Virus genome (UHGV): UHGV-0106421 | DNA from: a virus | DNA: 42,057 nucleotides | Strand: one strand, 5' to 3' | Shown: positions 32,670-35,236 of the stretch, piece after piece | How the letters are laid out: each line of letters starts with the position of its first letter | How positions within the stretch are numbered: the first letter of the stretch is position 1 | Notes under the pieces: generated by a model | Told to the model about the DNA's origin: nothing | Seen by the model: only the letters and a program-made list of their open reading frames with translations | The model's database searches: none | Program-made: the position numbers and the translations under genes

Positions 32670-33311
32670 ATGCGCATGAACAGAACAGAAACTATCGCCG
32701 CGCGTATCAAGCGATTACGGGAAGATAAAGGGCTTTCACAGAAGGCTCTGGCGGAGCTTTGCGGCTGGGCTTCACAATCTCGGATCGGCAACTATGAATC
32801 AGGAACCAGAAGCGTTAGTGTTGATGACGCAGAGGTAATAGCTAAAGCTTTGGGCGTCGCTCCGGCAGAACTGCTTTTTGGCGACAACTATCAGGGACAA
32901 TACAAGCCAGGGGAAAAGTTTCCGTTGATTAGCTGGGTTAGCGCAGGTGCATGGAGTGAGGCCGTAGAGCCGTACAACCCTCAGGCAGTGGATGAGTGGT
33001 ATGAATCAGATTGTCACGTTGTCGGTGACGCCTTCTGGCTCAGGGTTCAGGGCGACTCAATGACAGCTCCTACCGGCCTTAGCGTTCCTGAGGGTATGCT
33101 GGTTCTGTTCGACACTGGAAAGGAAGCCGTTAATGGAAGCCTGGTAGTTGCGAAGCTGACAGATGCTAATGAAGCCACGTTCAAGAAGCTAATCATTGAT
33201 GGCGGTAACAAATACCTGAAAGGGCTTAACCCTGCCTATCCGTTGATCCCAATCGACGGCAACTGCAAGATAATCGGCGTAGCAGTGCAGATGATGATGA
33301 AATTCTCCTGA
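32670..33311 (+). CDS. cI: CI-type repressor (HTH_XRE plus S24 LexA-like peptidase domain)
   Basis: 213-aa ORF with N-terminal HTH, Ala-Gly self-cleavage site (VSAGAW), catalytic Ser (GDSM) and Lys (VVAKL); almost no leader before the ATG. Confidence 0.8.
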   Translation: MRMNRTETIAARIKRLREDKGLSQKALAELCGWASQSRIGNYESGTRSVSVDDAEVIAKALGVAPAELLFGDNYQGQYKPGEKFPLISWVSAGAWSEAVEPYNPQAVDEWYESDCHVVGDAFWLRVQGDSMTAPTGLSVPEGMLVLFDTGKEAVNGSLVVAKLTDANEATFKKLIIDGGNKYLKGLNPAYPLIPIDGNCKIIGVAVQMMMKFS

Positions 33312-33335
33312 TATACCCGCCACTTAAAAACATCA

Positions 33336-33358
33336 AACCCGCTTCGGCGGGTTTTTTG
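33336..33358 (+). terminator. Rho-independent terminator immediately after cI
   Basis: cccgc-ttcg-gcggg hairpin followed by TTTTTT; no rexAB-like genes between cI and OL. Confidence 0.6.
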
Positions 33359-33396
33359 TTGCCCAAAGAAAATTAAATTACCTTAAAAATCAATGA

Positions 33397-33461
33397 AAAC
33401 ACGTGTTGTGATAAAAACAATCACATTTCGTGTTGACAGCACGAACACAATTTGTGATTAT
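33397..33461 (+). promoter_or_regulatory. OL/PL-like operator-promoter region
   Basis: TTGACA (33433..33438), 17-nt spacer, GATTAT (33456..33461); overlapping inverted repeats TGTGAT-N7-ATCACA (33407..33425) and aacacaatttgtgatt (33444..33459). Confidence 0.5.
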
Positions 33462-33507
33462 CTAGCCATCAGCAGGAAGCTGGTAGCCAAACGGAACAGA
33501 TTGGCAG

Positions 33508-33547
33508 GCTCTTTAACATTGATGGGATTGTCCCGCCGAAATGCGGG
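33508..33547 (+). promoter_or_regulatory. nutL-like site (boxA plus boxB hairpin) upstream of N
   Basis: boxA gctctttaac (33508..33517) and boxB hairpin cccgc-cgaaat-gcggg (33532..33547), identical to the elements between cro and cII. Confidence 0.55.
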
Positions 33548-33655
33548 AACCAAAGAGTAGTTGGCTTTGGGGTGACGTGAAGTGCAGCTGCACGACAGCA
33601 ACCGGAAGATAAGCACCCGGCGCGTCACCGCCAAAGTCAATCATCGGAGGTCAAC

Positions 33656-33928
33656 ATGACAGTAGTCATTACATATCTGGCTGACGATAACGCCAGAAAT
33701 CGCCGCAGAGCACGCAGACAGGCTCAACGTGAACAGGCAATGCAAGAACAGCGACTGGCGCGAAAAATTGCGCTAAAGCTCTCTGGTTGCGTCAGAGCAG
33801 ACAAAGCAGCATCACTCGGAAGCCTTCGCTGCAAGAAGGCAGATGAATGCAGTGGAAGTATTTGCCTGCCAAACGTAGCCATTTACGCGGCAGGATACCG
33901 GAAATCAAAACAACTGACAGCGAGGTAA
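33656..33928 (+). CDS. N-like transcription antiterminator (arginine-rich motif)
   Basis: 90-aa ORF with ARM NARNRRRARRQAQREQAMQEQ; GGAGG RBS; first gene of the PL operon, downstream of nutL. Confidence 0.55.
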   Translation: MTVVITYLADDNARNRRRARRQAQREQAMQEQRLARKIALKLSGCVRADKAASLGSLRCKKADECSGSICLPNVAIYAAGYRKSKQLTAR

Positions 33929-33931
33929 GTG

Positions 33932-34156
33932 ATGAATCAGACATACATTCCATCATGCTTGAGAAATCTGCCAAAGCAGAAAGCAAAGCCCCGCAAGCAA
34001 GCCATAAAGGACGCTAAGGCAGAGGTTATTGATCAAGCAATACAATTGCTCAGGGAGGAGTTAAGAAGTGGCAAGCTCGAAGGAATGATGATGCCTTATC
34101 AGCGCGGATATCTATCGGCTATTAGTAAGTTGGAAGTATTGAAGAGTGAATTATGA
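33932..34156 (+). CDS. Hypothetical small basic protein downstream of N
   Basis: 74-aa ORF from ATG 33932 with GAGG at 6-nt spacing; AT-rich by eye. Confidence 0.4.
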   Translation: MNQTYIPSCLRNLPKQKAKPRKQAIKDAKAEVIDQAIQLLREELRSGKLEGMMMPYQRGYLSAISKLEVLKSEL

Positions 34157-34218
34157 ACTATCTGGAATTTCCGGATGGTTCATTGTTTTGGCAGCAAACC
34201 ACTTATTTGAGGTGAGAT

Positions 34219-34689
34219 ATGACAATATCATGGAGCGTACCTTTTCCTGAATCAGAAACTGAACATGATGGAATGCCTGTTTTCTGGAGATTCCAGGCGA
34301 CAGTTGAAGAAGATGGAATCAAAATATTCGCACTTCAATATATAGCTTTTCATCAGACAGAGCATTATGCATGGTTGGTTCCTGCGCATTGGATTGTTAA
34401 TTTTAAACCAGCACCAAATCAGTGGTTACAGGAATGGAAACAAAAGAGAAATAGATATGCAATTAAGAAAGTAGCAAAAAATGCAGAAAGATCTTTTGCA
34501 TTCCCAACGAAGAAACTTGCCATTGAAAGTTTATTGCGCCGGAAGAAATACCATTTAATGAGAATCAAACAAGATTTGGCTGTTGTATCAACTCTTGTTG
34601 ATGGGATGAAGAATATTGATACATCAACACCAGATATTGAATATAACTTTGGACACAACCAAGAAACAGAAAACTGGGTGTTTTATTAG
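34219..34689 (+). CDS. Hypothetical protein, AT-rich moron at the ral/sieB position
   Basis: 156-aa ORF with GAGGTGAG RBS; markedly AT-rich by eye; followed by hairpins and a terminator before cIII. Confidence 0.5.
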   Translation: MTISWSVPFPESETEHDGMPVFWRFQATVEEDGIKIFALQYIAFHQTEHYAWLVPAHWIVNFKPAPNQWLQEWKQKRNRYAIKKVAKNAERSFAFPTKKLAIESLLRRKKYHLMRIKQDLAVVSTLVDGMKNIDTSTPDIEYNFGHNQETENWVFY

Positions 34690-34793
34690 TACGAATAAGC
34701 ACTGTGTATTCATTCCAACGAGTGAATACACGGAGCAATGTCGCTCGTAACTAAACAGGAGCCGACTTGTTCTGATTATTGGAAATCTTCTTT

Positions 34794-34818
34794 GCCCTCC
34801 AGTGTGAGGGCTTTTTTA
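34794..34818 (+). terminator. Rho-independent terminator between the AT-rich insert and cIII
   Basis: gccctc-cagtgt-gagggc hairpin followed by TTTTTT. Confidence 0.5.
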
Positions 34819-34883
34819 TATGCATACCAATAACGCTTCACTTGAGGCGTTTTCGTTATGCAATCAAATATAAGGAGTTACCC

Positions 34884-35018
34884 ATGATGCACTTTCAGCT
34901 CGCTGGTAGCGGCGTCATGTCCGCTTTCTACCCGCACGAATCTGAATTATCACGCCGAGTTAAACAATTAATCAGAGCAGCAAAGAAACAACTGGAGGCG
35001 TTATGCGCAATGAAATAG
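34884..35018 (+). CDS. cIII: CIII-like protease (FtsH) inhibitor
   Basis: 44-aa ORF MMHFQLAGSGVMSAFYPHESELSRRVKQLIRAAKKQLEALCAMK with AAGGAG RBS; resembles the central helix of lambda CIII as recalled. Confidence 0.55.
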   Translation: MMHFQLAGSGVMSAFYPHESELSRRVKQLIRAAKKQLEALCAMK

Positions 35019-35155
35019 CCATTAATCACCAGATGCTTCGTGCTGCACAGAACAAAGCAGTAATAGCCAGATTTATTGGTGATTCAAAAATGTGGCTTGA
35101 AGCAAATAAAGCGATGAAATCAGCTATCAACCTTCCGTGGTATCGCAGGAAATGA
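35003..35155 (+). CDS. kil: Kil-like small protein (possible FtsZ inhibitor)
   Basis: 50-aa ORF MRNEIAINHQMLRAAQNKAVIARFIGDSKMWLEANKAMK...; GGAGG RBS; overlaps the cIII end; IA(R/T)FIGD motif resembles lambda Kil as recalled. Confidence 0.4.
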   Translation: MRNEIAINHQMLRAAQNKAVIARFIGDSKMWLEANKAMKSAINLPWYRRK

Positions 35156-35236
35156 GTTTTACAGATAACTGGTCAGACGAAGAATTCATTCGTCAGATGA
35201 ACAAAATGCTCAATCAGCACAAAGAACAGGAGAAAG

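Follow-up and report, generated by a model that had tools for sequence, protein, structure and literature searches.

Two Genes between N and cIII

The interval between the N antiterminator gene and the cIII gene of the virus genome UHGV-0106421 (42,057 nucleotides (nt), the whole of which is referred to as the window) contains the two open reading frames (ORFs) that are the subject of this analysis, ORF-A (33932..34156, 74 amino acids (aa)) and ORF-B (34219..34689, 156 aa). The left flank is formed by N (33656..33928; Pfam N_peptide E = 1.1e-15; phrog_271) and the right flank by cIII (34884-35018; Pfam cIII 2e-30) and kil (35003-35155; Pfam Lambda_Kil 1.7e-20). All five genes are located on the + strand, which here is the direction of the lambdoid leftward early operon, and recombination genes follow downstream of kil. 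A preliminary description of the sequence had placed the two ORFs at the ral/sieB slot of lambda. This placement is correct, since the interval from N to cIII in lambda contains sieB, orf28, ral, and ea10 (lambda annotation, NC_001416). Both ORFs also carry the ribosome-binding sites (RBSs) that had been reported: ORF-A starts with an ATG 3 nt past the N stop codon with GAGG 6 nt upstream, and GAGGTGA is located upstream of the ORF-B start.

ORF-A matches the phrog_5305 profile over 71 of 71 profile positions (E = 4.6e-38) and ORF-B matches the phrog_1636 profile over 156 of 156 positions (E = 3e-111). Database searches with the two ORFs identified families at 55-99% identity with conserved columns and indels that are exclusively in-frame, distributed over the genera Escherichia, Enterobacter, Citrobacter, Leclercia, Cronobacter, Pectobacterium, Brenneria, and Rosenbergiella. 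The PHROG matches and the cross-genus conservation with in-frame indels show that both ORFs are genuine genes and not chance ORFs. They had been put forward as candidates for an undescribed function. The sequences themselves are not new: both are represented in PHROGs, each in a family of unknown function, and ORF-B is equivalent to HK97 gp45 (AAF31125.1), which was deposited as a hypothetical protein in AF069529.1. No paper that assigns a function to ORF-A or ORF-B was found in the literature library that was searched.

The ORFs had furthermore been described as far more AT-rich than the neighboring phage genes. This is true of ORF-B, where the window is richest in AT (GC 0.361 compared with a window mean of 0.50; GC at third codon positions 0.287; z = -2.85; 0.17th percentile of all 471-bp windows), and applies only weakly to ORF-A, which is mildly AT-rich (GC 0.427, 11th percentile). 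The contrast exists chiefly with N and the cI-type repressor gene (32670-33311), since the early genes downstream also display a GC content of 0.40-0.46.

ORF-A and ORF-B Are Independent Modules

A BLAST comparison of the region with related loci identified sharp breakpoints at 33928/33932, at about 34190-34215, and at 34817-34822. The resulting blocks consist of N, which ends exactly at its stop codon (33928), ORF-A (33932 to about 34211), ORF-B (about 34190 to 34817-34819), and cIII-kil (from 34822). The distribution of the two genes was determined in 5,426 complete Escherichia coli genomes and 50,697 phage records. ORF-B DNA is present in 598 and ORF-A DNA in 149 of the E. coli genomes, and the two are located close together in at most 62 of them. 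HK97 contains ORF-B (gene 45) without ORF-A, and the phages mEp213, mEpX2, and ECP1 contain ORF-A without ORF-B. The separate occurrence and the sharp block boundaries identify the two genes as independent modules, so that the single two-gene insert of the preliminary description has to be abandoned.

The arrangement N/ORF-A/ORF-B/cIII in one piece (33600-35100) was found in none of the phage records or E. coli genomes, and the best match covers 94% of this stretch in four pieces with extra genes between them. Other prophages carry ral, an Nmad5 protein gene, or an opposite-strand ORF between ORF-A and ORF-B, and a DUF2528 protein gene, a PF17420 GP17 protein gene, or a 138-aa ORF between ORF-B and cIII. 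Overall, the N and cIII-kil flanks are 97-99% identical among close relatives, and each inspected locus has a different set of genes between these flanks. Neither gene is a core gene of these phages, and the variability of the slot, for which a check had been proposed, is evident. Because variable content between conserved flanks of close relatives marks an accessory region, ORF-A and ORF-B are accessory genes.

Two additional ORFs were observed at or near the junction of the modules. A 34-aa ORF with a GTG start (34146-34250) crosses the ORF-A/ORF-B junction and is probably not a gene; the counterpart stretch is annotated as a gene in phage phi367. Prophages of O26 strains carry a 164-aa opposite-strand ORF without a Pfam hit between the post-N gene and ORF-B (L004 2225-2719, minus strand), which may be a sieB analog.

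ORF-A is located directly after N in mEp213, mEpX2, ECP1, and phi367, and is probably translationally coupled to N. An arrangement of this kind could reflect a functional tie, in which ORF-A would modulate, for example, the stability of N or antitermination and would not be free cargo. The 3-nt spacing and the position of ORF-A directly after N in every inspected lambdoid locus that contains it fit such a role. However, the same N allele precedes an unrelated 120-aa ORF in other prophages, and ORF-A has relatives at 38-42% identity outside the lambdoid group (Sasha, swi2, Bas81/82, and Vibrio phages). A function tied to N is regarded as very unlikely. Overall, relatives with 38-55% identity were identified in phages of Erwinia, Salmonella, Escherichia, Pseudomonas, and Vibrio, and several of these phages are not lambdoid.

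Constant Sequences Border the ORF-B Site

The 5' joint of the ORF-B site is a 26-nt leader (34196..34221, + strand; AAACCACTTATTTGAGGTGAGATATG) that contains the RBS and the start codon. With zero to two substitutions, the same leader precedes five unrelated ORFs: ORF-B (156 aa), orf184 (107 aa), a DUF7167 protein (62 aa), a 60-aa ORF, and a 28-aa ORF. The last of these encodes an acidic product and is located just upstream of ral, at the same place as orf28 of lambda. Copies of the leader were located in the compared loci at L001 2507-2532, L002 2597-2622, L003 2540-2565, L010 1097-1122, L011 1088-1113, and L012 1097-1122, and the string AAACCACTTATTTGAGGTGAKATATG can be used as a handle to locate cargo sites of the ORF-B type. 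The leader looks like a fixed recombination joint combined with a translation-start cassette for the exchange of cargo.

The 3' side of the site is equally constant. In the window, the segment at 34699-34817 (extending up to 34822) corresponds to the stretch between ral and ea10 of lambda (33920-34045), with 97.6% identity. It contains the hairpin HP2 (34702..34733, + strand), a perfect 14-bp stem (-23.9 kcal/mol, z = -5.6) without a U-tract that might serve as a processing site or transcript stabilizer, and an intrinsic terminator (34794..34817, + strand) composed of GCCCTC-loop-GAGGGC (34794-34811) plus U6. The terminator corresponds to a putative terminator annotated in HK97 and presumably to the tL2 terminator cluster of lambda. 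The segment is found after ORF-B, orf184, and the 60-aa ORF, is located upstream of ral in ECP1, and is conserved at 97-100% behind different cargo (L010 1483-1603, L011 1343-1465, and L012 1328-1449). Other cargo (DUF2528, GP17, and the 138-aa ORF) is inserted right after the terminator, at 34818-34821. A hairpin and a clean terminator had been described as closing a two-gene block; both elements are real, and the terminator is part of the common backbone of the operon and not of the cassette, as its reuse after other cargo and its identity with lambda indicate. Given a constant 5' leader and a constant 3' segment, the DNA that is specific to ORF-B is essentially the ORF alone. A second copy of 68 bp of the terminator segment (window 34733-34800, 100% identical) is located upstream of N in mEp213 (L010 120-187), and a weak terminator-like hairpin (34832..34851, + strand) is located at the start of the cIII-kil module.

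Distribution and Conservation of the ORF-B Family

The gp45 protein of HK97 is 98% identical to ORF-B and its gene shares the position, the leader, and the downstream terminator, without any substantive difference. ORF-B is also present in H-19B (unannotated), BP-4795, Min27, the Shiga toxin (Stx) phage of EDL933, and many other Stx1/Stx2 phages. An identification of ORF-B with the "gp17" of H-19B was considered and rejected, as gp17 is the neighboring gene.

A profile search of 1.84 billion representative sequences identified a wide family of 87 proteins, with members of 130-160 aa and about 80 distant relatives in gammaproteobacterial prophages. Two matches of the representative search, P0103 (seven matched stretches) and P0121 (three), were rejected as repetitive, low-complexity false positives. 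The family shares the pattern hET ... K..K...RFAF.T...A...L..RK..Q..HL and an aromatic-acidic C-terminal tail, and only G33, T47, K87, and A101 are nearly invariant, a set of residues that does not form an enzyme-like (catalytic) signature. A Pfam scan of 73 family members revealed no common domain, and a search of the family profile against the sequences in the PDB returned no significant match.

All relatives of ORF-B that were examined are phage-borne. Most of the distant relatives that were examined are located co-directionally among small ORFs in early or leftward operons, and the neighbors of ORF-B relatives include genes for Lar restriction alleviation proteins, orphan DNA methylases, RdgC, YqaJ exonuclease, SSB, and xis/int. 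Orthologs with 58-63% identity are located directly upstream of xis-int in prophages of Pectobacterium and Brenneria (L018 and L019, 4001-4477), where no N/cIII pair adjoins the gene; the position of the ORF-B gene within the early leftward operon is therefore not fixed.

The same position bears on a different function, in which ORF-B would be a nucleic-acid-binding regulator of the development of the phage itself (excision, integration, recombination, or early transcription) that is not aimed at host immunity. The association with xis-int agrees with such a role, as do a distant relative that adjoins an AlpA-type excisionase and a relative in a metagenomic phage that is the first gene of an operon diverging from the replication genes. 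The protein itself could also be suited to it: the ends of ORF-B are acidic and the center is strongly basic (net +13 over the 60 residues 61-120; seven Trp in the protein), and the basic center is predicted to form a β-strand followed by long helices. Overall, a regulatory function of this type is regarded as unlikely.

Predicted Products and Searches for Known Families

ORF-A is a basic protein (isoelectric point 9.7) with a Lys/Arg-rich N-terminal tail (PKQKAKPRKQ). The AlphaFold2 model (mean predicted local distance difference test score (pLDDT) of 86) places a helical hairpin (helices 21-45 and 54-73) after the basic tail. Foldseek searches with the model returned non-significant hairpin look-alikes in the PDB (best E = 0.87) and, among viral models, a non-significant match to an uncharacterized Aeromonas phage protein (best E = 0.07). 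The model also weakly resembled the cGAMP-binding phage protein T4 Vs.4 (E 2.6-3.4), a similarity that was dismissed as non-specific. Weak fold matches of ORF-A are uninformative, because a helical hairpin weakly resembles many structures. The model of ORF-B is weak (pLDDT 58). The peak Kyte-Doolittle hydropathy is 0.32 for ORF-A (19-residue window) and 0.56 for ORF-B, indicating that both proteins are soluble and contain no hydrophobic segment.

Neither protein had resembled a recognizable family in the preliminary description, and the searches of Pfam, NCBIfam, PADLOC, PDB sequences, and folds, all without a significant match to a characterized family, bear this out. Neither ORF matched Pfam or NCBIfam at E ≤ 1, all searches against PDB sequences, whether with single sequences or with the profile of the family, remained at E ≥ 0.12, and the PADLOC-DB search returned noise only (E 0.015 and 0.0097 across 14-46 residues). 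With respect to the known genes of the slot, neither ORF matched the Ral family (Pfam PF11058) or the P22 gp17-type family (PF17420 GP17), and neither showed the family match of SieB, a hydrophobic membrane segment, or a promoter-like site.

Promoters, Hairpins, and Expression

The PL-like promoter (33433-33461), a sigma-70-like site with a 10/12 match and an extended TG, is the sole strong site of this type upstream of ORF-A and ORF-B. A consensus promoter scan between PL and cIII identified no site with a match of at least 9/12, and a relaxed scan of 33650-34900 returned only 8/12 matches, which are at chance level for AT-rich DNA and of which none is well placed. A weak promoter-like site (TTTACA, 16 nt, AAGAAT; 9/12) is located just past kil on the + strand (35158-35185). 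Both genes are thus likely to be expressed from PL, because no promoter of 9/12 or better was found for them and the ORF-B leader is common to other cargo.

A hairpin, HP1 (34153..34183, + strand; -20.8 kcal/mol, z = -4.5), overlaps the ORF-A stop codon and travels with the ORF-A module. It is terminator-like because UUGUUUUGG comes next; the 34-aa GTG ORF overlaps HP1 and the leader. An Rfam scan detected no RNA family at the gathering threshold in the window, and within 33300-35100 there were two sub-threshold matches only (20.7 and 18.5 bits, E about 0.3).

Comparison with Lambda, Morons, and Other Genes of the Slot

Like the accessory genes of lambda, ORF-A and ORF-B are located in the PL operon in the interval from N to cIII-kil, and phages related to the window phage contain ral and the 28-aa ORF at the position of ORF-B. 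The lambda proteins Ral, SieB, Orf28, and Ea10 show no sequence similarity to ORF-A or ORF-B. Overall, the slot contains ral, a P22-gp17-type PF17420 protein, an Nmad5 nucleotide-modification protein, a DUF2528 protein, or orf184 in the relatives. The PF17420 gene of the O26 prophages is a separate 103-aa cargo between ORF-B and cIII, and the DUF2528 protein is taken to be Ea10-like by size and position only.

The accessory regions of enterobacterial phages, including the N-cIII slot with its counter-defense genes, have been described (Silas et al., bioRxiv 10.1101/2023.04.06.535777). The same study placed orf184 in the ral-containing accessory region and showed that it triggers gop-beta-cII abortive infection/cell death. 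The orf184 gene (AFM76385.1, mEp213_045; L010 1120-1443) occupies exactly the cassette site of ORF-B in mEp213, with the same 26-nt leader and the same hairpin-terminator segment, and the product of the ORF-A gene just before it is identical to the ORF-A of the window. Unlike ORF-A and ORF-B, the orf184 product, an acidic protein of 107 aa that is unrelated to them, has a demonstrated phenotype. The ORF-A and ORF-B peptides were not among the 200 genes tested in that study (bioRxiv 10.1101/2023.04.06.535777) or in the supplements of the follow-up paper.

The preliminary description proposed a function in exclusion, defense, or counter-defense. The hypervariable slot with ral, GP17, Nmad5, and orf184 fits this range of functions, and the exclusion and defense half of it is less likely, because ORF-A and ORF-B have no promoter site, no membrane segment, and no PADLOC match. 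A prophage-expressed superinfection-exclusion or defense gene similar to sieB or rex would nevertheless have precedents at this position. In lambda, sieB directly follows N, and the O26 prophages carry a PF17420 "superinfection exclusion gp17" gene in the same slot. The strongly AT-deviant composition of ORF-B is typical of morons, a concept used for HK97 gp15, and like morons the two genes are single-gene additions that are present or absent among relatives. By the usual marks of a moron, however, the resemblance is partial: ORF-B deviates in composition and ORF-A does not, the terminator that follows ORF-B forms part of the backbone, and whereas morons are prophage-expressed promoter-gene-terminator units, no individual promoter of ORF-A or ORF-B was identified by the consensus scan, and both genes are co-oriented within the early operon. 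Furthermore, PL and ORF-B are separated by a terminator-like hairpin, the leader shared with other cargo is not a control region belonging to ORF-B, and no PADLOC match was significant. The comparison with SieB of lambda (L020 1583-2137) points in the same direction, as the annotated orientation of the lambda gene is opposite to that of PL and its product reaches a Kyte-Doolittle value of 1.73, in contrast to the low values and the co-directional orientation with PL of both ORFs. Altogether, a prophage-expressed exclusion or defense function of either gene appears quite unlikely.

A Proposed Model of PL-Driven Cargo Cassettes

The explanation that is tentatively preferred, and judged quite possible, is that ORF-A and ORF-B are two independent cargo cassettes encoding PL-driven early counter-defense or host-takeover proteins that act by binding. 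Within this explanation, the support is good for the modular anatomy, whereas the assignment to a functional class is a best guess. ORF-A occupies the position directly after N in the leftward early (PL) operon, and ORF-B a second site between the constant leader with its RBS and ATG and the constant hairpin-terminator segment. Cargo would be swapped between phages by homologous recombination in the common flanks. In view of the lack of a promoter for either gene, transcription of both would start at PL and be confined to the period after infection or induction, when N allows RNA polymerase to pass HP1 and the terminator. The two products, small, soluble, and without a conserved catalytic motif, would most likely bind a macromolecule of the host or of a competitor; the helical-hairpin protein ORF-A may assemble into an oligomeric bundle, and the very basic central helices of ORF-B could plausibly engage nucleic acid. 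The two proteins would thereby share the functional class of ral and orf184, which are found in the same slot, and would not belong to the prophage-expressed defense genes.

Several observations weigh against this explanation. The functional class is a best guess from genomic context, as neither ORF-A nor ORF-B displays homology to a known anti-defense protein, and guilt by association is weak here because accessory regions also contain exclusion genes, such as sieB in lambda. The promoter scans were consensus-based, and a promoter that is weak or requires an activator could escape them, as could expression in a lysogen. A known fold could be hidden in ORF-B because its structure model is poor. 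Finally, a distant relative of ORF-B on a 40-kb metagenomic phage contig (L007 2919-3365) is located alone on the opposite strand between the tail-terminator gene and other virion genes, which is the classic arrangement of a lysogen-expressed moron and favors the exclusion function discussed above.

Implications for Lambdoid Phages and Their Hosts

Both the hotspot and the two genes were already catalogued, and the present result adds two candidates to a known hotspot and not a new kind of system. The constant leader and hairpin-terminator segment provide a sequence handle for harvesting cargo genes of lambdoid phages at the ORF-B site. If either protein is a counter-defense factor or a trigger of abortive infection, it would represent a new family for the anti-defense catalogue. 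It is conceivable, if doubtful, that the ORF-B family (HK97 gp45/phrog_1636 and about 80 distant relatives) is a new family of early proteins that neutralize bacterial immunity or are sensed by it, and ORF-A could be a further inhibitor with a helical-hairpin structure and no sequence relationship to ORF-B. The presence of ORF-B in HK97, a tractable model phage that readily allows clean deletions, offers a direct experimental entry point. About one complete E. coli genome in nine and many Shiga-toxin phages contain the gene, and on this reading ORF-B could affect the strain range of the phages that carry it, including many Stx1/Stx2 converting phages, whose host range is relevant to public health.
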